DNA from: Horticoccus luteus
Lineage (GTDB): Bacteria; Verrucomicrobiota; Verrucomicrobiia; Opitutales; Opitutaceae
Length of the DNA: 32,000 nt
NCBI RefSeq assembly: GCF_019464535.1
Contig: NZ_CP080507.1
Location: 3,030,001 to 3,062,000, forward strand
Direction of reading: 5' to 3'
Position 1 is the stretch's first letter. Each line of letters opens with the position of its first letter. Position numbers and translations under genes: made by a program. The notes beneath the pieces are model-generated. The model was not told the origin of the DNA. It did not search any database and was given only the letters and a program-made list of their open reading frames with translations. Shown in pieces: positions 15,971 to 30,410 of the stretch.

Positions 15971-17230
15971 TCAATGAACGAGACCTTTTGCCGCCACCCA
16001 GCGCAGCGTCCGCTCGGCCAGCCGGTCAAACGCCTGCACGCACGCCTCGAGATGCTCTTCCTTCGTGTCCTCGATCTTGTTGTGACTGATGCCGTGCAGA
16101 CTCTGCACAAACATCATCACCGTCGGCACCCCCGCCCCCGCCACCTCCGCCGCATCGTGCAACGGCCCCGACGGCAACCGGTGCGACTGCCCGCACGTCT
16201 CCCGGATCGCCTCGTCGCAAAACTCAATCAGCTCCGGATGAAACGGCCGCGGCTCGATCTGCCACAACCTCTCCCACGTCACCGTCACGTTGCCCTCCTG
16301 CGCAAACCGTTCGCTCGCCTCCTGCGCCTCGCGTAACATCCGCGCCAGCGCCGCCGCGTCGAGATGCCGTTGATCGAGCGTGAGGCGACACTCCTCCACC
16401 ACACTCGTCACGATGCCCGGCTTGGTGGAGCACGATCCGATCGTGCACACGCCCACGCCGCTGCGCTCCGCGATGCGATATATCTCCGGGCTCATCCGCG
16501 CCGCCGCGAGTAACGCATCCTTCCTCCGGTTCATCGGCGTCGATCCCGAGTGCGCCGCCTGCCCGCGAAACGTGATCGCGTGCCGCTCCACACCAAACGT
16601 CCCCAGCACCGCGCCCAGCGGCAGATCGAGATCGAGCAGCACCGGCCCCTGCTCCACGTGCAACTCGAGATACGCCGCCGCGTCTTTCAATTCCGCGCCG
16701 CTCGCCTTTGCGTTTTCCAAGTCAATCCCCACCGCGCGCAACGCCTCCGGCAGCGCCACGCCGTCACGATCCTTCAGTCCCCGCGCCTCTTCCATGTTCA
16801 ACGTCCCCGCACACGCCGACGAGCCGAACAAACTCTTCCCGAAACGCGCCCCTTCCTCATCCGCCCAGTCCACCAGCCGCACCGTCACCGGCGGACGCCC
16901 GGCATACTGCGCCACGATGCGCCGCAAAATCTCCAGCCCCGCCAGCACGTTGAGGCAACCATCGAGCCAGCCGCCATTCGGCACCGAATCCATGTGCCCC
17001 CCGATCAACAACGCCCGCGGCGATTCGCCCGGGAGCGTGCTCCACATATTTCCTGCCGCGTCCACGTGCGTCTGCAGTTGCGGGATCGCGTCCAGTTTCG
17101 CGCGCAACCACGCTCGCGTCGCCACCCACACCGGCGTGAACGCCACGCGCTGCGCGCCATTTTCGTCGCCCGTCAGTCGGCGCAACTCTTTCAATTCCTC
17201 AATCGTGCGGCGGGGATCGACAGCATTCAT
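15971..17230 (-). CDS. M20-family Zn-dependent amidase of the hydantoinase/carbamoylase group; likely N-carbamoyl-beta-alanine amidohydrolase (beta-ureidopropionase), 419 aa
   Basis: LLIGGHMDSVPNGGWLDG, WADEEGARFG and LELHVEQGPVL are signatures of AmaB / allantoate-amidohydrolase-type M20 enzymes. The gene is divergent from preT. The start was set at MNAVDPRR (ATG 17230) rather than the track start at 17380. Confidence 0.85.
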   Translation of the reverse strand: MNAVDPRRTIEELKELRRLTGDENGAQRVAFTPVWVATRAWLRAKLDAIPQLQTHVDAAGNMWSTLPGESPRALLIGGHMDSVPNGGWLDGCLNVLAGLEILRRIVAQYAGRPPVTVRLVDWADEEGARFGKSLFGSSACAGTLNMEEARGLKDRDGVALPEALRAVGIDLENAKASGAELKDAAAYLELHVEQGPVLLDLDLPLGAVLGTFGVERHAITFRGQAAHSGSTPMNRRKDALLAAARMSPEIYRIAERSGVGVCTIGSCSTKPGIVTSVVEECRLTLDQRHLDAAALARMLREAQEASERFAQEGNVTVTWERLWQIEPRPFHPELIEFCDEAIRETCGQSHRLPSGPLHDAAEVAGAGVPTVMMFVQSLHGISHNKIEDTKEEHLEACVQAFDRLAERTLRWVAAKGLVH

Positions 17231-17427
17231 CACAGAGACGTGGGGTTGAAAATTTCCCCTGTCTTCTCCGTCACACCGATCGCAACAACGGAAGGCAGGG
17301 CACTTTGCGGCTTGGAAACTAGCGCCCGCACCGCCACATTCAACTGGCAATCCGGCGCACCCCTCGCCGTCCGCCCTCATTTTTGCCCGCGCCCGATTCC
17401 GCGCCCGCGTCCCGCCGCCCTCTTTCC

Positions 17428-18885
17428 ATGGCTCTTCAACCGCTGCTCTCCTCCGACGCCCTCGCCGCCAACATGGCGGAGCTCAAACCGCCCTTCCGCC
17501 CCAGCGAGGCCCTCGTCGAGGCTCACCGCTGCCTCTTCTGCTTCGACGCCCCGTGCATCATGGCCTGCCCCACCGGCATCGACGTGCCGGCGTTCATCAA
17601 AAAAATCGCCGCCGGCCGCCCCGCCGACGCCGCGCGCACCATCCTCTCCGCCAACATTCTCGGCGCCTCCTGCGCCCGCGTCTGCCCCACCGAAGTCCTC
17701 TGTGAAGGCGCCTGCGTCCTCGACGACCGCGATGAACAACCCATCCAAATCGGACGCCTCCAGCGCTACGTGACCGACTTCGTCACCGAACGAAACATCT
17801 CCGTCCTCTCCGCCCCCGCGCAAAAATCCGGCCACGCCATCGCCGTCATCGGCGCCGGTCCCGCCGGCCTCGGCTGCGCCGCCGAACTTGCCCGCCTCGG
17901 CCATCGCGTGACCATTTTCGAGCAGAAACAACTGCCCGGCGGCCTCAACACCTACGGCATCGCCTATTACAAAATGACGCCCGACGTCAGCCTCGCCGAA
18001 GTCGACCTCGTGCGATCGCTCGGCGTCGAAATCCGCTGCGGTGTCACCGTCGGGCGCGATATCACCGTCGCCCAACTCGAAAAAGAGTTCGCCGCACTCT
18101 TCCTCGGCGTCGGCCTCGGCGCCGCGACGCGCCTCCGCATTCCCGGCGAAGACCTGCCCGAAGTCCTCGATGCCCTAGACTACATCGCGCAGATTCACAC
18201 GCAACGGCTCGACAAAATCCCCACCGGCCGTCGCGTCGCCGTCATCGGCGCCGGCAACACCGCCATCGACGCCGTCACCCAGTCGAAGCGCCTCGGCGCC
18301 GACCGCTCCTTCATCGTTTACCGCCGCGGCGAACCCGAAATGTCCGCCTACGATTTCGAATACGCACACGCCAAACACGACGGCGCGCATTTTCTTTTTC
18401 ACGCCGCACCCCTCGAAATCCTTGCGACTGATGGCCACGTCTCCGGCCTCCGTCTCGTCCGCACGCGCCTCGTCGGCGACCGCGCCGAGGCGATTCCCGG
18501 CACCGAATGGATCGAGCCCTGCGACCTCGTGCTCAAAGCCGTCGGCCAGCAAAAGCAAGCCGCCCTCCTGCGCTCGCTCTTCCCCACGCTCGCCCTCGAC
18601 GACCGCGGCGTCGTGCAACGCGATCCCCTCACCGGCGCGACCAATCTCCCCCACGTTTTCACCGGCGGCGATTGCGCCAACGGTGGACGCGAGGTCGTCA
18701 ACGCCGTTGGCGAAGGCAAGAAGGCCGCTCTCGGCATCCACGCTTTCCTTACGCGGGCCCTGGCGTCGCTTCCCGTGCAACCCTCCCGCCTCGGCGCAAA
18801 AGCCGGCGCCAGCGGCTCCGGTCTGGTTCATCCCATCCGCGCGCACGAACTGGAAGCCGCGCTCCCGTCCCCCGCCCGCGGCTGA
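17428..18885 (+). CDS. preT: NAD-dependent dihydropyrimidine dehydrogenase subunit PreT (GltD-like FAD/NAD oxidoreductase), 485 aa
   Basis: The N-terminal Fe-S cysteine clusters CLFCFDAPCIMACPTGIDV and CARVCPTEVLCEGAC, two dinucleotide folds (VIGAGPAGLGCAAEL and VIGAGNTAIDA), and position immediately upstream of preA. Start at MALQPLL (17428). Confidence 0.88.
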   Translation: MALQPLLSSDALAANMAELKPPFRPSEALVEAHRCLFCFDAPCIMACPTGIDVPAFIKKIAAGRPADAARTILSANILGASCARVCPTEVLCEGACVLDDRDEQPIQIGRLQRYVTDFVTERNISVLSAPAQKSGHAIAVIGAGPAGLGCAAELARLGHRVTIFEQKQLPGGLNTYGIAYYKMTPDVSLAEVDLVRSLGVEIRCGVTVGRDITVAQLEKEFAALFLGVGLGAATRLRIPGEDLPEVLDALDYIAQIHTQRLDKIPTGRRVAVIGAGNTAIDAVTQSKRLGADRSFIVYRRGEPEMSAYDFEYAHAKHDGAHFLFHAAPLEILATDGHVSGLRLVRTRLVGDRAEAIPGTEWIEPCDLVLKAVGQQKQAALLRSLFPTLALDDRGVVQRDPLTGATNLPHVFTGGDCANGGREVVNAVGEGKKAALGIHAFLTRALASLPVQPSRLGAKAGASGSGLVHPIRAHELEAALPSPARG

Positions 18886-18992: not shown

Positions 18993-20309
18993 ATGGCCGA
19001 TCTCTCCACCAACCTCGCCGGCATCAAGTCTCCCAATCCCTTCTGGGTCGCGAGCGGTCCGCCCGCCAACACCGCTTACCAGGCCCACCGCGCCTTCGAA
19101 GCCGGCTGGGGCGGCGTGGTCTGGAAAACCATCGGCGATCCGATCGTCAACGTCGCCTCGCGCTACTCCGCGTTGAACTACGGCCGCGACCGCATGATCG
19201 GCCTTAACAACATCGAGCTCATCAGCGACCGCTCGCCTGAGACGAATTTCCGCGAAATCGCCGAGGTCAAAAAACGCTGGCCGCACCACGCCGTCATCGC
19301 GTCCCTCATGGTCGACACGCGCGAACGCTGGCACGAATTCGTCCGCCGCTCCACCGACGCCGGCGCCGACGGCATCGAGCTGAATTACGGCTGCCCGCAC
19401 GGCATGTGCGAACGCGGCATGGGTTCCGCCGTCGGCCAGCAACCCGCCGTCGCCGAAAAAATCACGAGCTGGGTCATGGAGGTCGCGACGATCCCCGTCA
19501 TCGTCAAACTCACGCCCAACATCACCGACATCACCGCCGCCGCCCGCGCCGCCAAACGCGCCGGCGCCAACGCGATCTCGCTCATCAACACGATCAACTC
19601 GATCACCAACGTGAACCTCGACACGTTCGTGCCCGAACCCACCGTCGCCGGCCTCAGTTCGCACGCCGGTTATTGCGGCCCCGCCGTGAAGCCCATCGCG
19701 CTCAATATGGTTCAGTCTTGCGCCGCCGACCCCGCCGTCGGCCTCCCGATCTCCGGCATCGGCGGCATCGCCAACTGGCGCGACGCCGCCGAGTTCCTCG
19801 CCCTCGGCTCGACCAGCCTGCAAGTCTGCACCGCGATCATGCACTACGGTTTCCGCATCGTCGAAGACATGAACGAAGGCCTCAGCGCCTACCTCGACAG
19901 CAAAGGCATGAAGTCGATCAACGAACTCATCGGCCGCGCCGTTCCCACCGTGCAAAAATGGGAAACCCTCGACCTCAACTGGCAGCGCGTCGCGCGCATC
20001 GACTACGAGAAATGTATCGGCTGCAACCTGTGCTACATCGCCTGCGAAGACGGCGCGCACCAATGCATCGATCTCCTCTCGCCCGACGAACTCAACATCG
20101 GCCTCGGCCCTGGACGCGTCCCGCACAAACCCGTCCCCAAAGTCCGCGAAGAAGACTGCGTCGGCTGCAACCTCTGCAGCCTCGTGTGCCCGGTGGACGA
20201 CTGCATCACGATGACGGAAATCCCCACCGGCCGCCCGCCGCTAAGCTGGAGTGACTATCAAACCCGCCTCGCCGCCGGCGAAATATCCCCCCTCCCGCCG
20301 CATCCGTGA
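18993..20309 (+). CDS. preA: NAD-dependent dihydropyrimidine dehydrogenase subunit PreA (DHOD-like TIM barrel plus 2x[4Fe-4S]), 438 aa
   Basis: NPFWVASGPP, ELNYGCPHGM and VKLTPNITDI match the DHPD/DHOD fold. C-terminal ferredoxin motifs CIGCNLCYIACEDG and CVGCNLCSLVCPVDDC. Start at MADLSTN (18993), in the frame of track ORF 18507-20309. Confidence 0.92.
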   Translation: MADLSTNLAGIKSPNPFWVASGPPANTAYQAHRAFEAGWGGVVWKTIGDPIVNVASRYSALNYGRDRMIGLNNIELISDRSPETNFREIAEVKKRWPHHAVIASLMVDTRERWHEFVRRSTDAGADGIELNYGCPHGMCERGMGSAVGQQPAVAEKITSWVMEVATIPVIVKLTPNITDITAAARAAKRAGANAISLINTINSITNVNLDTFVPEPTVAGLSSHAGYCGPAVKPIALNMVQSCAADPAVGLPISGIGGIANWRDAAEFLALGSTSLQVCTAIMHYGFRIVEDMNEGLSAYLDSKGMKSINELIGRAVPTVQKWETLDLNWQRVARIDYEKCIGCNLCYIACEDGAHQCIDLLSPDELNIGLGPGRVPHKPVPKVREEDCVGCNLCSLVCPVDDCITMTEIPTGRPPLSWSDYQTRLAAGEISPLPPHP

Positions 20310-20319
20310 TCACGTGGTG

Positions 20320-20359
20320 AAGCTCCAAAATCCAACATCCAAGCTCCATAGAAGCGCCA
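20320..20359. repeat. Left terminal inverted repeat of the cassette
   Basis: Contains AAGCTCCA at 20320 and 20341 and the variant AAGCGCCA at 20352, mirrored by TGGAGCTT at 20873, 20852 and 20841. Confidence 0.8.
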
Positions 20360-20421
20360 AGCTTCAACTGGAAACGAAGCGCCCACCCAACTACGCTGAG
20401 GCGAACGGCACGGATTGGTCC

Positions 20422-20796
20422 GTGGGCGAGGATTCACCTGCGACCGGAAGACATCCCTTTGATTTGGAAGAACGGACGGCTTGTTTCGGCGCAGCCATTA
20501 TTCGCTTCCTCAAAAAAGTTCCTCACGGACCCAACAACAACCGGTTGATCGACCAACTCGTAGGCTGCGGCACGAGCATAGGCGCCAACTATTGTGAGGC
20601 CAACGAAGGCGTTTCCAAAAAAGACTTCCGCAACATCATTGGCCGCTGCGTGAAAGAAGCGAAGGAAACGAAGTTTTTTCTTCGTATGATTGCCACCTCT
20701 GAACCCGCGCTCGCCGATCAAGCGCGCACGCTCTACCGCGAGGCGCAAGAACTGCACCTCATCTTCGCCAGCATCTATCGCAATACCAAGCCATGA
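20422..20796 (+). CDS. Four-helix-bundle protein (23S rRNA intervening-sequence protein / Avd-like family), about 124 aa
   Basis: FDLEERTACFGAAIIRFLKKVP...NRLIDQLVGCGTSIGANYCEANEGVSKKDFRNIIGRCVKEAKETKFFLRMI is the family signature (TSIGANY.EA...SKKDF...KE.KET). There is no ATG upstream in this frame. GTG at 20422 gives the family-typical length; alternative GTGs lie at 20314 and 20317, inside the left arm. Confidence 0.8.
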   Translation: MGEDSPATGRHPFDLEERTACFGAAIIRFLKKVPHGPNNNRLIDQLVGCGTSIGANYCEANEGVSKKDFRNIIGRCVKEAKETKFFLRMIATSEPALADQARTLYREAQELHLIFASIYRNTKP

Positions 20797-20840
20797 GCTT
20801 CATGGGCCGAATACTACGGCATCTTCCGAGCCTCGCAGCG

Positions 20841-20880
20841 TGGAGCTTCTCTGGAGCTTGGATGTTGGTGCCTGGAGCTT
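20841..20880. repeat. Right terminal inverted repeat of the cassette
   Basis: TGGAGCTTCTCTGGAGCTTGGATGTTGGTGCCTGGAGCTT is the reverse complement of the left arm at 34/40 positions. It ends 19 nt before the mmsA ATG. Confidence 0.8.
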
Positions 20881-20899
20881 TCCTCCCTCACAACCTTTC

Positions 20900-22399
20900 A
20901 TGACCACCCCGCTCACCCCCTGCCCGCACCTCATCGGCGGCGAATGGTCGACGCCCTCCGGCGCCACCACGCCCGTTTATAATCCCTCCACCGGCGAAGT
21001 CATCGCCGAGTGCCCCGTCGGCGGCGCCGCCGAAATCAACGCCGCCGTCGCCGCCGCCGCTGCAGCATTTCCCGCGTGGCGCGAAACCCCCGCCGTCGAT
21101 CGCGCGCGCATCTTTTTCCGCTTCCGCCACCTCATCGAGCAAAACCACGACCGCCTCTGCCTCAGCGTTTCCCGTGAGCACGGCAAAACACTTTCCGAAG
21201 CGCGCGGCGATGTTCACCGCGGGATGGAAAACGTCGAATACGCCTGCGGCATTCCCTCGCTCCTCTTCGGCGACACCCTCGAAAACCTCGCGCGCAACGT
21301 CGACTGCGAGACCATCGTCCAGCCCCTCGGCGTTTGCGCCGGCATCACCCCCTTCAACTTCCCCGCCATGGTGCCGCTCTGGATGTATCCGCTCGCCATC
21401 GCGTGCGGCAATACGTTCGTCCTCAAGCCCAGCGAAAAAGTCCCGCTCACCGTCATCCTTCTCGCGCAGTTGCTCGAACAAGCCGGCCTGCCCAAAGGCG
21501 TGTTGAACATCGTCCACGGCGGGCGCCCATGCGTCGACGCCCTGCTCACGCATCCGCAGGTGAAAGCCATTTCCTTCGTCGGCTCCACCCCGATCGCGAA
21601 ATACATTTACGAAACCGGCACGCGCCACGGCAAACGCGTCCAGGCCAACGGCGGCGCGAAAAACTACATCGTCGTCATGCCCGATGCCGACATCGCGAAG
21701 ACCGTCGAAGCGCTCTCCACCGCCGCCTTCGGTTGCGCCGGCGAGCGTTGCATGGCCGGCTCGACCGCCCTCCCCGTCGGCGCCGCCGCCGAGCGGCTCC
21801 TGCCCGATCTCATCGCCGCCGCCAACGCGATCAAAGTCGGCCGCACCGATCGGCCCGCCCCCGCCGCCCAACCCGACATGGGCCCCGTCATCACCGCCGC
21901 CCACCGCGACCGCGTCCTCAGCCTCGTCGCCGCCAGCGAATCCGAAGGCGCCAAAATCATCGCCGACGGCCGCCGCGCCAAAATCGCCGACGCCCCCGGC
22001 GGGTTCTATCTCGGCGCCACGGTGGTCGACGGCGTGCACCCTGACATGACCCTCGCCCGCGAGGAAGTCTTCGGTCCCGTCCTCAATGTCATGCGCATGG
22101 ACGACCTCGACGCCGCCATCGCGCAAGCCAACGCCTCCGCCTTCGGCAACGGCGCCGCCATCTTCACGAACAGCGGCCGCGCCGCCCGCGAGTTCAAGCA
22201 TCGCGTGAAAGCTGGCATGGTCGGCATCAACGTGGGCGTCCCGGCGACGATGGCCATGTTCCCCTTCACCGGCTGGGACGACTCCTTCTTCGGCGATCTC
22301 CACATTCAAGGGAAGGAAGCCGTGCAATTCTACACGCAGCAAAAAGTCGTCACGAGTCGCTGGTTCGGCGGCGACGTCGGCGACGTGTGGAAAAAATAG
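20900..22399 (+). CDS. mmsA: CoA-acylating methylmalonate/malonate-semialdehyde dehydrogenase, 499 aa
   Basis: Aldehyde dehydrogenase fold with FNFPAMVPLWMYPLAIACGNTFVLKPSE, the catalytic-Cys motif GCAGERCMAGS and the C-terminal GWDDSFFGDLHIQGKEAVQFYT typical of MmsA. Start at MTTPLTPCPHLIGGEW (20900). Confidence 0.92.
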   Translation: MTTPLTPCPHLIGGEWSTPSGATTPVYNPSTGEVIAECPVGGAAEINAAVAAAAAAFPAWRETPAVDRARIFFRFRHLIEQNHDRLCLSVSREHGKTLSEARGDVHRGMENVEYACGIPSLLFGDTLENLARNVDCETIVQPLGVCAGITPFNFPAMVPLWMYPLAIACGNTFVLKPSEKVPLTVILLAQLLEQAGLPKGVLNIVHGGRPCVDALLTHPQVKAISFVGSTPIAKYIYETGTRHGKRVQANGGAKNYIVVMPDADIAKTVEALSTAAFGCAGERCMAGSTALPVGAAAERLLPDLIAAANAIKVGRTDRPAPAAQPDMGPVITAAHRDRVLSLVAASESEGAKIIADGRRAKIADAPGGFYLGATVVDGVHPDMTLAREEVFGPVLNVMRMDDLDAAIAQANASAFGNGAAIFTNSGRAAREFKHRVKAGMVGINVGVPATMAMFPFTGWDDSFFGDLHIQGKEAVQFYTQQKVVTSRWFGGDVGDVWKK

Positions 22400-22527
22400 A
22401 AACTCCAACCTCCACCCTCCAAGCTCCAGAGAAACCTCAACCCTGAGACCTCCAAACCCATCCATGCCAACTTCGAGAATTGAACCCTGGAGCATCTCCG
22501 GAACCGGGATGTTGGACCTTCGAGCTT
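22400..22527. repeat. ORF-less miniature copy (128 bp) of the 20320-20880 element
   Basis: The left arm 22400-22439 matches 20320-20359 at 31/40 positions. The right arm 22488-22527 matches 20841-20880 at 31/40. Orientation is the same, with only 48 bp between the arms. The copy starts 1 nt after the mmsA TAG and ends 7 nt before the hydA ATG. Its own two arms are only about 26/40 complementary, so it is decayed. Confidence 0.7.
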
Positions 22528-22534
22528 TTTCCTC

Positions 22535-23917
22535 ATGAGCCTGCTGATTAAGAACGGCGAAATCATCACCGCCGACTCCCGCTACGTGGCCGATATCTAC
22601 TGCGAGGGCGAAACGATCACGCACATCGACCGCCACCTTTCCGCTCCCGCCGGCACCGAGGTGATCGACGCGCAGGGTAAATACGTCTTCCCCGGCTTCA
22701 TCGACCCGCACGTCCACATCCATCTGCCCTTCATGGGCACCCTCGCCAAAGATACGTATGAATCCGGCTCGCGCGCGGCCTTGGTCGGCGGCACCACCAC
22801 GCTCATCGAAATGTGCTGTCCCGCACGCCAGGACGACGCTCTGCAATCCTTCGAACAATGGATGAACAACGCCGTCGGTAAATCCGCCTGCGATTTCTCG
22901 TTCCACATGGGCGTCACGAAATTTGACGACGCCACCGCCGCGCAGCTTCGCGAAATCGTGCGCCGCGGCATCTCGTCGTTCAAAATCTTCCTCGCCTACA
23001 AAGGCGCCTTCGGCATCGACGACACCGAACTCTACCGCGCGCTCAAGCTCGCCAGAGAACTCGGCGTCGTTGTCACCGCGCACTGCGAAAACGAGACCCT
23101 CGTCGCCGAACGCTGCAAGGAACTGCTCGCCGCCGGCAAGACCGACCCCGGCCAGCATCACGAAAGCCGCCCGCCCGCCGTCGAGGCCGAGGGCGTGCAC
23201 CATTTGATGACGTTCGCCGAACTCACCGGCGCCGCCGTTTACATTGTCCACCTCTCCTGCCGCGAAGCGCTCGACGAGGCTATCGCCGCCCGCCAGCGCG
23301 GCGTGCGCGTCGGCATCGAAACGCTCATCCAATATCTCACGCTCGACAAATCCTACGCCGAACGCCCGGGCTTCGAAGGCGCGAAATACGTCATGTCGCC
23401 GCCCTTGCGCGACGTGCGCAACCAGGAGGTCCTCTGGCACGGCCTCCGCGACGGCCTCATCAACACCGTCGCCACCGACCACGCGCCCTTCGATTTCGCC
23501 GGCCAAAAACCGCTCGGCCGCGACGACTTCACCAAGATCCCCAACGGCATTCCATCGCTCGAGGAGCGCATCAACCTGCTCTACACGTACGGCGTGAAAC
23601 GCGGACGGATCGATCTGCACACCTTCGTCAACGTCGCCAGCACCGCCGTCGCGAAACAGTTCGACCTCTTTCCCCGCAAAGGCGCCATCCAGCCCGGCGC
23701 CGACGCCGACCTCGTCGTCTTCGACCCGAATTATCGCGGCAATATTTCCGTCGCGACGCAGCACATGGCCGTCGATTACAGCGCCTTCGAGGGCTGGCCG
23801 ATCGAAGGTCGCGCCAGCGTCGTCACCGTCCGTGGCCAGGTCGCCGCGCGCGACGGACAATTCACCGGCACCCTCGGCCGCGGGCGCTTCCTGCAACGGA
23901 AGCCCAGCCATTTTTAA
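22535..23917 (+). CDS. hydA: Dihydropyrimidinase (D-hydantoinase), 460 aa
   Basis: Cyclic amidohydrolase metal ligands: GFIDPHVHIHLPF, SFKIFLAYKG (carboxylated Lys), TAHCEN, YIVHLS and ATDHAPF. Confidence 0.93.
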   Translation: MSLLIKNGEIITADSRYVADIYCEGETITHIDRHLSAPAGTEVIDAQGKYVFPGFIDPHVHIHLPFMGTLAKDTYESGSRAALVGGTTTLIEMCCPARQDDALQSFEQWMNNAVGKSACDFSFHMGVTKFDDATAAQLREIVRRGISSFKIFLAYKGAFGIDDTELYRALKLARELGVVVTAHCENETLVAERCKELLAAGKTDPGQHHESRPPAVEAEGVHHLMTFAELTGAAVYIVHLSCREALDEAIAARQRGVRVGIETLIQYLTLDKSYAERPGFEGAKYVMSPPLRDVRNQEVLWHGLRDGLINTVATDHAPFDFAGQKPLGRDDFTKIPNGIPSLEERINLLYTYGVKRGRIDLHTFVNVASTAVAKQFDLFPRKGAIQPGADADLVVFDPNYRGNISVATQHMAVDYSAFEGWPIEGRASVVTVRGQVAARDGQFTGTLGRGRFLQRKPSHF

Positions 23918-24014: not shown

Positions 24015-25514
24015 ATGTCCACTGAATCCAGAACCAGCGGCACGCTTACCGATCCGTCCGCCGGATCATCCGTCTTAACCACCTCGCCGCTCTACAATGC
24101 CGATCTCGCGCCCGTGCCCGCCGAGCGTCGCACATGGACGCGCTGGCACATCGCCGCCCTCTGGGTCGGCATGGCCGTTTGCATCCCCACCTACACCATC
24201 GCCTCGGGACTCATCGCGAGCGGCCTGAATTGGTGGCAGGCGCTCCTCTGCGTGCTGCTCGGCAATCTCATCGTGCTGATTCCGATGACGCTCAACGCCC
24301 ACCCCGGCACCGCCTACGGCATCCCGTTTCCGGTGTTGTTGCGCGCGAGTTTCGGCACCCTCGGCGCCAACCTTCCCGCCCTCATGCGCGCGATCGTGGC
24401 CTGCGGCTGGTTTGGCATTCAAACCTGGGTCGGCGGCGCGGCGATTTATAGCACCGCCGCGATTATTTTCGGCTTCGATCCCGCGACCAAAATCGCCCTT
24501 CCGGTCCTCGGCCTCTCGCCCGGCGAGTTCTCCTGCTTCCTGCTGTTTTGGGCCATCAACGTTTACTTCATTGTCCGCGGCATGGAGTCCATCAAATGGC
24601 TGGAAACGTTCAGCGCGCCGTTTCTCCTCCTTGTTGGCGGCGCGTTGATGCTTTGGGCCTATCACGCCGCGCACGGTTTCGGCCCGATCTTTGCCCAACC
24701 CGACACGCTCTTCGCCGCCGGAAAATTCTGGCCCATCTTCGGCGGCGGCCTCACCGCGATGGTGGGCTTCTGGGCGACGCTCTCGCTCAACATTCCCGAC
24801 TTCTCCCGCTTCGCCCGCTCGCAACGCGACCAAATCGTCGGCCAGGCGCTCGGCCTGCCGACGACGATGACATTCTACTCGTTCATCGGCATCGTGGTCA
24901 CGAGCGCCACGCTCGTCATCTTTGGCAACGCGATCTGGGATCCCGTGGTCGTCATTGCGAAGTTCGGCAGCAAATCTCTCTCCGCCCTCGCGCTCCTCAC
25001 GCTCGCCGTCGCCACGCTCTCGACCAACATCGCGGCCAACGTCGTCTCCTCCGCCAACGATTTCTCCAACCTCGCTCCGCGGCGCATCAGTTTCAAACTC
25101 GGCGGCCTCCTCACCGCCATCATCGGCCTGGTCATGATGCCGTGGAAACTCATGGCGGATCCGACCGGCTACATCTTCACCTGGCTGATCGGCTATAGCG
25201 CGCTCCTCGGCCCCATCGCCGGCATCATGATCGCCGACTACTTCGTCGTCCGCCGCAAGCAGCTCGACGTCGCCGCGCTCTACGATCCGCACGGCGCCTA
25301 TCGCTTCACCCACGGCTTCAGCCTCGTCGCGCTGCTCGCGTTTCTCCTCGCCGTGCTGCCGTCACTGCCGGGCTTTCTCGTCGCCGTCGGCGCGGTCGCG
25401 CCAACGAGCGTCGCGCCGATATTCCTCAACCTCTATAACATCGCCTGGTTCGTCGGCTTCGCGCTCGCGTTCGCCGTTTACCTCGTCCTCCGCCCCCTCG
25501 CGCGCCGCGCCTGA
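24015..25514 (+). CDS. NCS1 family nucleobase:cation symporter (uracil/hydantoin/allantoin-type permease), 499 aa
   Basis: Twelve-TM-like hydrophobic profile. N-terminal NADLAPVPAERRTW and downstream NIPDFSRFARS motifs are typical of NCS1 transporters. Pathway context fits. Confidence 0.88.
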   Translation: MSTESRTSGTLTDPSAGSSVLTTSPLYNADLAPVPAERRTWTRWHIAALWVGMAVCIPTYTIASGLIASGLNWWQALLCVLLGNLIVLIPMTLNAHPGTAYGIPFPVLLRASFGTLGANLPALMRAIVACGWFGIQTWVGGAAIYSTAAIIFGFDPATKIALPVLGLSPGEFSCFLLFWAINVYFIVRGMESIKWLETFSAPFLLLVGGALMLWAYHAAHGFGPIFAQPDTLFAAGKFWPIFGGGLTAMVGFWATLSLNIPDFSRFARSQRDQIVGQALGLPTTMTFYSFIGIVVTSATLVIFGNAIWDPVVVIAKFGSKSLSALALLTLAVATLSTNIAANVVSSANDFSNLAPRRISFKLGGLLTAIIGLVMMPWKLMADPTGYIFTWLIGYSALLGPIAGIMIADYFVVRRKQLDVAALYDPHGAYRFTHGFSLVALLAFLLAVLPSLPGFLVAVGAVAPTSVAPIFLNLYNIAWFVGFALAFAVYLVLRPLARRA

Positions 25515-25576: not shown

Positions 25577-26920
25577 ATGAAAAACATCCCGCTGCCGCCT
25601 TGCGCCCACACCCCTGCGCCTTACACCGGCCCTTCCGCCGGCCAGGTCCTCGCGCAACGCCGCGAATTCCTCAACCCCGGCATCATCACTTACTACAAGC
25701 ACCCCATCATGATCGTGCAGGGGAAAATGCAGTGGCTCTGGGACGACGCCGGCAAACGCTACCTCGATGCTCTCGGCGGCATCGTCACCGTCAGCGTCGG
25801 CCACTGCCACCCCCATGTCGTCGCCGCCGCGCACCAGCAGAACGAACTGCTGCAACACGCCACCACGCTTTACCTGCATCCGAACATCGGCGAGTTCGCC
25901 GAGAAGCTCGCGTCCACGCTCCCCGGCGATCTCAAGGTCTGCTACTTCGTCAACTCCGGCTCCGAAGCCAACGACCTCGCCCTCCTCATGGCGCGGCTCT
26001 ACACCGGCAACTACGACGTGATCGCCCTGCGCAACGCCTACCACGGCGGCAACGCCGCGGGCATGGGTCTGACCGCAAACTCCAATTGGAAATTCAATGT
26101 CCCGCATAGCTTCGGCGTGCATCACGCCCAGACGCCCTATTCCTATCGCGGCGTCTTCGGCTACGACGATCCCGACGCCGGCCGCAAATACGCCGACGAC
26201 GTCAAACAGGTGATCGACTACGCCACGTCCGGCAAAATCGCCGCATTCATCGCCGAATCGATGCAAGGCGTCGGCGGCTTCGTCGAGTTTCCCGCCGGCT
26301 ATCTCCAGCACGCCTACGGCCACGCCCGCGCGGCGGGCGGCGTGTGCATCGCCGACGAAGTGCAAACCGGTTTCGGCCGCACTGGCACGAATTTCTGGGG
26401 CTTCCAAAATCACGGCGTCGTGCCCGACATCGTCACCATGGCAAAAGGCATCGGCAATGGCGCGCCCCTCGCCGCCGTCGTCACCACCCCGAAAATCGCC
26501 GCGATGCTCACGCAAAAGACGCATTTCAACACCTTTGGCGGCAACCCCGTCGTCTGCGCCATTGGCACCGCCGTCCTCGACGTCATCGCCCGTGAAAAGA
26601 CGCAGCAAAACTGCCTCGAACTCGGCCGCCACCTCCTCGCGGGACTGAACAAGCTCAAAGAGAAACACGCGCTCATTGGCGACGTGCGCGGCCAAGGCCT
26701 GATGGTCGGCCTCGAGTTCGTGAAAGATCGACAGACCAAAGAGCCCGCCAAAGAGGCGTGCCAGCAAGTCGTCGAGAACTGCCGCGAACTCGGCCTCCTC
26801 GTTGGCAAAGGCGGCTTGTGGGGCCAGACCATTCGCATGGCTCCGCCGATGAACATCACGAAAGCCGACGCCGACTTCATCCTCGCCGTGCTCGACGAAG
26901 CCATCGGCGCCGCCGCATAA
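25577..26920 (+). CDS. Class-III PLP aminotransferase, AGXT2-like (beta-alanine / 3-aminoisobutyrate : pyruvate type), 447 aa
   Basis: [25 protein letters not shown] and [12 protein letters not shown] (PLP lysine), with overall similarity to alanine-glyoxylate aminotransferase 2. Substrate is inferred from operon context. Confidence 0.85.
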
Positions 26921-26950
26921 AATCAGCGGCCGTGCGGTGCTTTCCACGAT

Positions 26951-26994
26951 CCGGCGCGTGTCGTCTCGCGCGCCGGAAAAAAAACCGGCCGCGC
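26951..26994. terminator. GC-rich palindrome cluster with an A8/T8 tract in the convergent gap; non-canonical terminator candidate
   Basis: CCGGCGCG (26951-26958) pairs with CGCGCCGG (26969-26976). Alternatively, GCGCGCCGG (26968-26976) pairs with CCGGCCGCGC (26985-94) across the A8 tract (26977-26984). Neither strand shows a textbook hairpin followed by a U-tract. Confidence 0.35.
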
Positions 26995-27003
26995 CGCCCC
27001 GCC

Positions 27004-30410
<3,407 letters not shown>

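Follow-up and report, generated by a model that had tools for sequence, protein, structure and literature searches.

Within a 32,000-nt stretch of the Horticoccus luteus genome (NZ_CP080507.1, positions 3,030,001 to 3,062,000; hereafter ‘the window’, whose numbering is used throughout), a reductive pyrimidine-catabolism operon on the plus strand holds copies of an inverted-repeat element in two of its spacers: a large one between preA and mmsA and a miniature between mmsA and hydA. Our analysis shows the large element to be a cassette—a promoter-less gene for a four-helix-bundle protein of the pentamer family (S23p/TIGR02436), structurally related to the Avd protein of diversity-generating retroelements (DGRs)—set between arms of tandem 7-nt units. 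Judged by its co-oriented placement, strong purifying selection and co-divergence with MmsA, this preA–mmsA copy is an old, vertically inherited, long-term operon resident of Verrucomicrobiota and not a recent parasite. For comparison, a genome scan assembled a family set of 80 loci (L-numbers), almost all of them labelled Verrucomicrobiota.

A heptad-armed element in the preA–mmsA spacer

The large element spans 561 nt (20320-20880). Its arms form an inverted repeat of 44 nt that is 84% complementary and 473 nt apart; the 5' arm is composed of the units AAGCTCC, AAAATCC, AACATCC and AAGCTCC, followed by the centre ATAGAA and then by more units. The core motif TCCAAGCTCCA (≤1 mismatch) occurs four times in 32 kb, always within the large element or the miniature, against an expected count of 0.55; four occurrences were reached in 0 of 100 shuffles. 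The arms are predicted to anneal into a 43-bp duplex of -68.7 kcal/mol, comprising a 17-bp helix, one mismatch and then a 6-bp helix, and the minimum-free-energy fold of the 601-nt region likewise pairs them (z = -5.3).

Consensus scans returned no promoter or terminator within or adjoining either element (plus strand for terminators), with the proviso that verrucomicrobial promoters may deviate from the consensus; with both elements empty in these scans, we rejected an intrinsic terminator, an attenuator or an internal promoter as their identity. Nor does a known RNA family account for them: an Rfam search of the window gave no rRNA and no other family at the gathering score or at E ≤ 1.

An earlier note on this DNA had the large element begin 11 nt after the preA stop and end 19 nt before the mmsA start. 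These coordinates were right to within a base: the downstream distance holds, the upstream one is 10 nt, and the mmsA ATG lies at 20900 rather than at 20901 (Table 1). The same note held that no coding sequence is disrupted, and PreA, MmsA and HydA indeed each match their profiles over nearly the whole length, implying intact flanking genes.

Table 1 Coordinates of the operon genes and of the parts of the two elements in the window.
Feature	Position	Strand	Basis
preT	17428-18885	+	gene model
preA, NAD-dependent dihydropyrimidine dehydrogenase subunit, upstream cistron	18993-20309, stop TGA 20307-20309	+	NF006183 653 bits; Pfam DHO_dh and Fer4_21
Cassette ORF (open reading frame), S23p/Avd-like four-helix-bundle protein, 159-160 aa	20314-20796; GTG 20314 or 20317, stop TGA 20794-20796	+	PF05635, TIGR02436, fold matches
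5' arm of the large element, also ORF codons 3-17	20320-20363	+	inverted repeat, family alignment
3' arm of the large element, non-coding reverse complement of the 5' arm	20837-20880	+	inverted repeat; ends 19 nt before the mmsA ATG
mmsA, CoA-acylating methylmalonate-semialdehyde dehydrogenase	20900-22399, ATG 20900, stop TAG 22397-22399	+	TIGR01722 649 bits
ORF-less miniature, 128 nt, a decayed hairpin	22400-22527/22528; 5' arm ~22400-22441, 3' arm ~22474-22528	.	arm matches, folds, L013 alignment
hydA, dihydropyrimidinase, downstream cistron	22535-23917, ATG 22535	+	TIGR02033 544 bits; Pfam
NCS1 permease, operon member after hydA	24015-25514	+	
Class-III aminotransferase, operon member after the permease	25577-26920	+	

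The cassette encodes an S23p/Avd-like protein

The product of the cassette ORF matches PF05635 with 39 bits (cut-off 33.8) and TIGR02436 with 58 bits (cut-off 24), and it finds the structure 2RLD in the PDB at E = 2.7e-10. Its AlphaFold model comprises four confident helices and a disordered tail of ~45 residues. Compared by Foldseek, the target-normalised TM-scores were 0.86 to 2RLD and 0.82 to 2GSC, both pentamers of the S23 family, and 0.65 to Avd (4DWL). The disordered tail, residues 1-45, is basic and partly encoded by the left arm. The protein probably binds nucleic acid through this tail and the toroid, and it may act on the arms of its own cassette.

The ORF most likely starts at one of two GTG codons that follow the preA stop by 4-7 nt; it continues through the left arm, which encodes residues 3-17 of the protein. 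As the start of the ORF is also the left boundary, element and gene therefore begin together. In copies whose arms are of the AAGCTCC type, an ATG or GTG at this boundary directly precedes the first repeat unit (ATGAAGCTCCAAG...); it is in frame with the four-helix-bundle domain in 22 of the 23 copies, and the frame it opens is uninterrupted in 21 of them, even with linkers that range from 34 to 86 codons. In 31 aligned proteins, the extension MKLQAPTSKLQR... is followed by the nearly invariant residues Y27, W35 and E39 among variable ones, from which we read conservation of the N-terminal extension at the protein level. A shorter ORF starting at the internal GTG 20422 (124 aa) was rejected in view of this extension and of the in-frame boundary start in relatives.

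In many loci, the upstream stop and the cassette start are -4 to +4 nt apart, with overlaps of the form TAATG or ATGA, and in independent gene calls the cassette ORF overlaps preT by 4 nt. Given its translational coupling, its strong conservation and its inheritance together with a metabolic operon across the phylum, the cassette protein is functional.

A cassette family in operon spacers of Verrucomicrobiota

A protein search retrieved more than 7,900 relatives, the closest of which are 80-86% identical and typically called as proteins of 155-163 aa. Neighbour orientations and gaps in the family set were taken from an ad hoc gene caller based on codon usage. By this measure, the ORF points the same way as the upstream gene in 75 of 75 loci and as both neighbours in 69 of 72. 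Median gaps are ~2 nt on the upstream side, measured to the stop, and ~10 nt on the downstream side, measured to the ATG.

Inverted heptad arms bracket almost every copy. Their anatomy is the same in the window and in nearly all 80 loci—roughly four 7-nt units, a centre resembling AGAGAA or AAAGAA, and two to three further units—while the unit itself differs by lineage, being AAGCTCC, AAGCACC, AAACACC, AAACTTC, AAAGCTC, AATGACG, AATGACC or AAATCCG. The same pyrimidine operon hosts ~45 of the 80 loci. Cassettes were found in at least eight distinct operon contexts, which include five separate spacers within the pyrimidine operon, pairs of PSCyt/DUF1553 with DUF1501 genes, DUF58–BatA, aldehyde dehydrogenase–EutN and several others.

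A second, more canonical S23p subfamily has arms of GTGATCA or GTGACGT units. It is represented in the mmsA–hydA spacer of two loci (L027:7892-8368 and L061:1485-1948), where such inverted arms flank an ORF of canonical S23p type (DL.VWQ...FGL.SQMRRAAVSI.SNIAEG). Because these cassettes are built with other heptads, the heptad-arm design is common to distant PF05635 subfamilies.

Two further observations concern the family set. In L005, L009, L023, L026, L032 and L035, the layout has three arms, with a complete miniature (a second left-type arm plus a right arm) directly after the ORF; in these loci, the ORF's left arm and the local left-type arm could compete for a single right arm. L009, L023, L035, L038, L052, L057, L063 and L073 stem from metagenome-assembled genomes (MAGs) labelled Acidoferrum, Bifidobacteriaceae, Binatia or Akkermansia muciniphila, yet they carry operons and cassettes of verrucomicrobial type; these bins are probably contaminated or mislabelled.

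Long residence upstream of mmsA and turnover downstream of it

Cassettes directly upstream of mmsA show a dN/dS of ~0.07, at saturated dS; the value for mmsA is 0.13. Distances between cassette proteins track those between MmsA proteins (Mantel r = 0.52, a value reached by 1 of 2000 permutations), with mean divergences of 0.21 and 0.22, respectively. The earlier note had pictured a selfish element tolerated within the operon, an idea that sits poorly with such constraint and co-divergence. Copies within one MAG share 57-88% protein identity, on which ground recent transposition was rejected. A search for target-site duplications gave best exact flank repeats equal in length to those at displaced control sites; in the window, the flank repeat measures 4 nt at the large element and is missing at the miniature.

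Occupancy of the mmsA–hydA spacer is more variable. It holds a full cassette in L068, L076, L078 and L014, a cassette of the second subfamily in L027 and L061, a heptad miniature in 11 loci and an unrelated hairpin in L016, L019, L028, L043 and L049; it is empty in L025 (23 nt) and L033 (30 nt). The unrelated hairpins are of GTCATGCTGAGCGCAGCGAA... and CCACAGA/CCACGGAT type (L016:7241-7380, L019:8031-8135, L028:7835-7930, L043:4397-4498, L049:1050-1157) and stable (z = -4 to -6), so that different palindromic elements substitute for one another at a single site. From this variable occupancy, it follows that cassettes come and go over long times.

The empty spacers also bear on how tightly the elements fit. 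Their filling of spacers almost to the base had been taken as a hint of a role in RNA. This argument falls, since empty orthologous spacers measure only 23-30 nt: insertion into a spacer of that size, together with an ORF start codon that doubles as the left boundary, accounts for the tight fit.

The miniature in the mmsA–hydA spacer

The miniature was correctly placed by the earlier note, directly after the mmsA stop and up to 22527/8, ahead of the hydA ATG. Its arms are 79% and 73% identical to those of the large element, and the inverted cross-matches, at 82% and 75%, are as good as the direct ones. A palindrome is strand-symmetric, and the orientation of the miniature is therefore unreadable from its arms. 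Of the claim that both copies are co-oriented with the operon, only the half concerning the large element, with its ORF on the plus strand, can thus be upheld. Better-preserved orthologous miniatures keep a boundary ATG on the sense side.

L013 (Oleiharenicola) has an intact orthologue of the miniature at the same site, of the same length and alignable throughout. In this and most other genomes, the mmsA–hydA spacer forms a highly stable hairpin, with energies of -49 to -84 kcal/mol and z-scores of -5 to -10. Set against these relatives, the window miniature is an ORF-less derivative that has decayed in the host lineage; its mismatches (22400-22534) are mostly A.C on the sense strand.

Arm pairing and a possible role in mRNA segmentation

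As a whole explanation, we put forward, at somewhat less than even confidence, a cassette akin to the intervening sequences (IVSs) of 23S rRNA that segments the operon mRNA through cleavage by RNase III; by analogy, such cleavage is plausible as the most likely mechanism. The cassette would be transcribed as part of the mRNA that runs from preT and preA to the aminotransferase gene, and ribosomes finishing preA would re-initiate on the cassette ORF. With the ORF untranslated, the arms would pair into a stem of ~43 bp that encloses the ORF and buries its start codon. This stem would be a substrate of RNase III, as in the 23S rRNA IVS, and cleavage would remove the cassette RNA and part preTA from mmsA-hydA-permease-aminotransferase. 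Transcription within the polycistronic mRNA, as claimed in the earlier note, is a reasonable assumption, and so is a long double-stranded stem within it, given co-orientation in 75 of 75 loci, the predicted duplex and the lack of promoter or terminator consensus.

Several observations indicate that the pairing of the arms is under constraint. An element's own arms match each other better than arms drawn from different elements do (37.0 vs 29.1 of 48 positions, a level that 0 of 5000 permutations reached). Among miniatures at orthologous sites, 90.9% of paired cells are complementary vs 86.9% after shuffling; at variable unit positions, eight pairs have changed on both sides, a number matched by 1 of 500 shuffles, and the covariation score is 0.172 vs 0.108 (0 of 500 shuffles as high). 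The non-coding 3' arm is ~80% conserved among orthologues and between genera whose synonymous sites are saturated. We conclude that arm pairing is maintained, but that its maintenance at the level of the transcript is without support.

A number of results weigh against an RNA-level role or are neutral towards it. Within the orthologous set, own-arm and cross-element complementarity hardly differ (39.4 vs 38.4). Mismatches between the arms of 64 elements are G.U in 88 cases and A.C in 102, giving no sense-strand signature; selection on the left arm as coding sequence confounds this test. Folding as sense RNA gives the greater stability for just 27 of 64 arm pairs and 7 of 23 miniatures; the antisense fold is more stable in the other 16 of the 23 (p ~0.05). 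The window miniature itself folds weakly (-28 to -32 kcal/mol, z = -1.3 to -1.9), its antisense fold (-47) being 19 kcal/mol more stable than the sense fold (-28), and as a decayed hairpin it would make a poor RNase III substrate in the host genome. As the arms are conserved as sequence, recognition as DNA or by a protein would explain them too. Finally, a point that the earlier note had not considered: the left arm is translated, and ribosomes would therefore compete with the stem and melt it. The role in RNA that this note proposed thus keeps the IVS-like build, the long predicted stem and the co-orientation on its side, whereas it loses the sense-strand signature, the miniature and the argument from spacer filling.

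The arms may alternatively matter only as DNA, being terminal inverted repeats or sites for the cassette's own pentameric protein that serve mobility or maintenance. The RNA stem would then be a by-product, and co-orientation would reflect no more than the dependence of the ORF on host transcription and translational coupling. Such an account, which we regard as unlikely, would be in keeping with the equal frequency of G.U and A.C mismatches and the sense fold's lack of an advantage, with the sequence conservation of both arms, and with 7-nt units that stand in shuffled order from one orthologue to the next, as slippage would produce. The mmsA–hydA spacer, held by differing elements or by none, would bespeak repeated insertion and loss, and the ORF-less miniatures resemble MITEs (miniature transposable elements with inverted repeats). 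Yet neither the cassette nor the window encodes a transposase, nuclease or reverse transcriptase, target-site duplications are no commoner than in controls, and the 57-88% protein identity within MAGs bears no sign of recent transposition; moreover, the preA–mmsA copy co-diverges with its operon, and in the sense of the transcript the A-rich arm is always the 5' one. Somewhat less probable again are intercistronic hairpins resembling repetitive extragenic palindromic (REP) sequences, which would block 3' exonucleases or attenuate read-through and so set cistron ratios without any cut by RNase III, the ORF being a passenger. In most relatives, the same spacers do contain very stable hairpins (-50 to -84 kcal/mol, z = -5 to -10), unrelated hairpin families replace one another at the same spacer, and a T-run ends many miniatures. 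Against this stand the empty terminator scan at both elements, full-cassette arms that lie 473 nt apart around a translated ORF, the missing sense-strand stability advantage, a hairpin that has decayed in the host genome, and the empty spacers of L025 and L033.

A purely translational device strikes us as very improbable. In such a device, the right arm, with a GGAG every 7 nt, would provide the next gene's ribosome-binding site or hide it, the left arm would serve as an anti-Shine-Dalgarno sequence, and translation of the ORF would unmask mmsA. GGAG repeats are present in right arms of the AAGCTCC type, which end 4-19 nt before the next ATG, and the stop-start overlaps show coupling on the upstream side. 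But 22 nt separate the last GGAG from the mmsA ATG, and Shine-Dalgarno motifs are absent from the 30 nt upstream of all 24 predicted genes of the window, whose start codons instead follow C/T-rich tracts (CTTTCC or TTTTCCTC, for example), pointing to Shine-Dalgarno-independent initiation in the host organism. Other arm types (CGTCATT, GGTCATT, TGATCAC) likewise lack a motif of this kind. On these two grounds, masking of a Shine-Dalgarno sequence by the arms is largely refuted for the host genome.

Genomic surroundings of the operon

Divergent from preT, a gene for an amidase of the hydantoinase/carbamoylase family (15971-17230, minus strand) probably supplies the beta-ureidopropionase step that completes the reductive pyrimidine pathway; promoters are expected in the 197-nt region between the two genes (17231-17427). 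At the far end, a strong, G+C-rich hairpin with an A8/T8 run (26921-27003; -42 kcal/mol, z = -2.7) separates the convergent aminotransferase gene from a gene for a CT398-like coiled-coil protein (27004-27621, minus strand), and probably serves as a terminator in both directions, at the operon's end. A 1007-codon open frame antisense to mmsA and hydA (20888-23911, minus strand) was dismissed as a gene, because it has no family support and shadow frames of this sort are expected in coding DNA of high G+C content.

Comparison with known systems

The closest likeness is to the ORF-type IVSs of 23S rRNA found in Coxiella burnetii, Leptospira and others, which likewise contain an S23p/PF05635/TIGR02436 ORF inside terminal inverted repeats. 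In the Coxiella IVS, AGAAGA, followed by GACAGAT heptamers, precedes the S23p start; the terminal stem comprises 28 bp, and the RNase III cut falls inside it, at the first heptamer (PMC4990558). For this species, the statement of the earlier note that RNase III acts on the stems of IVSs with this gene family is borne out. In the cassette, too, an AG-rich motif and tandem 7-nt repeats mark the 5' end: AGAGAA, with AAGCTCC-type units on either side. Sizes agree as well (~430-760 nt for IVSs, 561 nt for the cassette), and short ORF-less versions exist in both settings. Unlike the IVSs, the cassette resides between two protein-coding cistrons, preA and mmsA, and not in helix 25 or 45 of 23S rRNA; translation of its ORF is coupled to that of the upstream gene and runs through an arm; and it is inherited with its operon across a phylum. 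Purifying selection acts strongly on the cassette protein; the Coxiella ORF, by contrast, is in decay and seemingly goes untranslated. Cleavage is known for the Coxiella stem and is proposed for the cassette by analogy.

Intercistronic RNase III sites, as in the early mRNAs of phage T7 and in E. coli rpsO-pnp and rnc-era, split polycistronic mRNAs. The cassette resembles them in that a long, imperfect double-stranded stem between cistrons could give separately stable mRNA pieces. Those sites are short local hairpins with no gene inside, in contrast to heptad arms that lie 473 nt apart and one of which is coding. With DGR Avd, the cassette protein shares the four-helix bundle of the pentamer family (besides 4DWL, it matches the Avd chain of 8UBE) and a basic character that makes it a likely nucleic-acid binder. 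Unlike in a DGR, there is no reverse transcriptase domain in any ORF of the window and no direct template/variable repeat (TR/VR) pair, the repeats of the cassette being inverted.

With MITEs and with REP sequences and bacterial interspersed mosaic elements (BIMEs), the cassettes have in common that they are palindromic and intergenic, occur in short ORF-less forms and turn over in spacer occupancy between lineages. As a check on copy similarity, the arms of the two copies in the window are 73-79% alike. The differences are the lack of a transposase or REP-associated tyrosine transposase (RAYT) in the window and of a target-site duplication, arms that are arrays of 7-nt units, a conserved non-transposase gene in the full form, and a placement that is strictly intra-operonic and co-oriented. 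The GTAG/CGTC tag of REP and BIME sequences, which are G+C-rich palindromes of 20-40 nt, is not visible in the 44-nt A/C-rich heptad arms.

Heptamer repeats have been described in Xanthomonas (GGGAATC) and in Nostoc/Anabaena (GGGGA(C/T)T, known as STRR) as G-quadruplex-forming simple repeats of tandem 7-nt intergenic units; those of Xanthomonas often come as convergent inverted pairs, and one Anabaena repeat lies inside an operon, between pecE and pecF (PMC4692102). They resemble our arms as tandem intergenic units of 7 nt, and the published accounts draw no link to an enclosed ORF or to IVSs. Xanthomonas and Nostoc/Anabaena also encode PF05635 proteins. In the open-access full-text literature, we found no description of extra-ribosomal IVS-like cassettes or of PF05635 genes with heptad arms, an absence that is not proof; where related heptamer repeats are described, they are not linked to the cassette ORF family.

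Implications

To our knowledge, the origin of the 23S rRNA IVSs and the function of the S23p ORF have been open questions since about 1990. The same design of an ORF with heptad arms is now seen in the predicted messenger RNA of a metabolic operon, and the rRNA IVSs may be a side branch of a cassette family that dwells in operons. It is also possible, though on balance we doubt it, that they are a special case of a much larger, undescribed class: promoter-less, translationally coupled S23p/Avd-like cassettes with heptad arms that would colonise operon spacers, persist there over very long times and, with their arms cut by RNase III or bound by their own pentameric protein, set mRNA segmentation and expression. 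Such a class would extend across Verrucomicrobiota and might include the heptamer pairs of Xanthomonas and cyanobacteria. Should the arms prove inert at the RNA level, the cassettes would still constitute a previously undescribed and very orderly class of intra-operonic elements. The system is tractable: a single operon has full, miniature and empty spacers among related species, and the protein is a relative of DGR Avd. It allows us to ask what the arms and the protein do, and whether bacteria cut their polycistronic mRNAs with the help of such cassettes.

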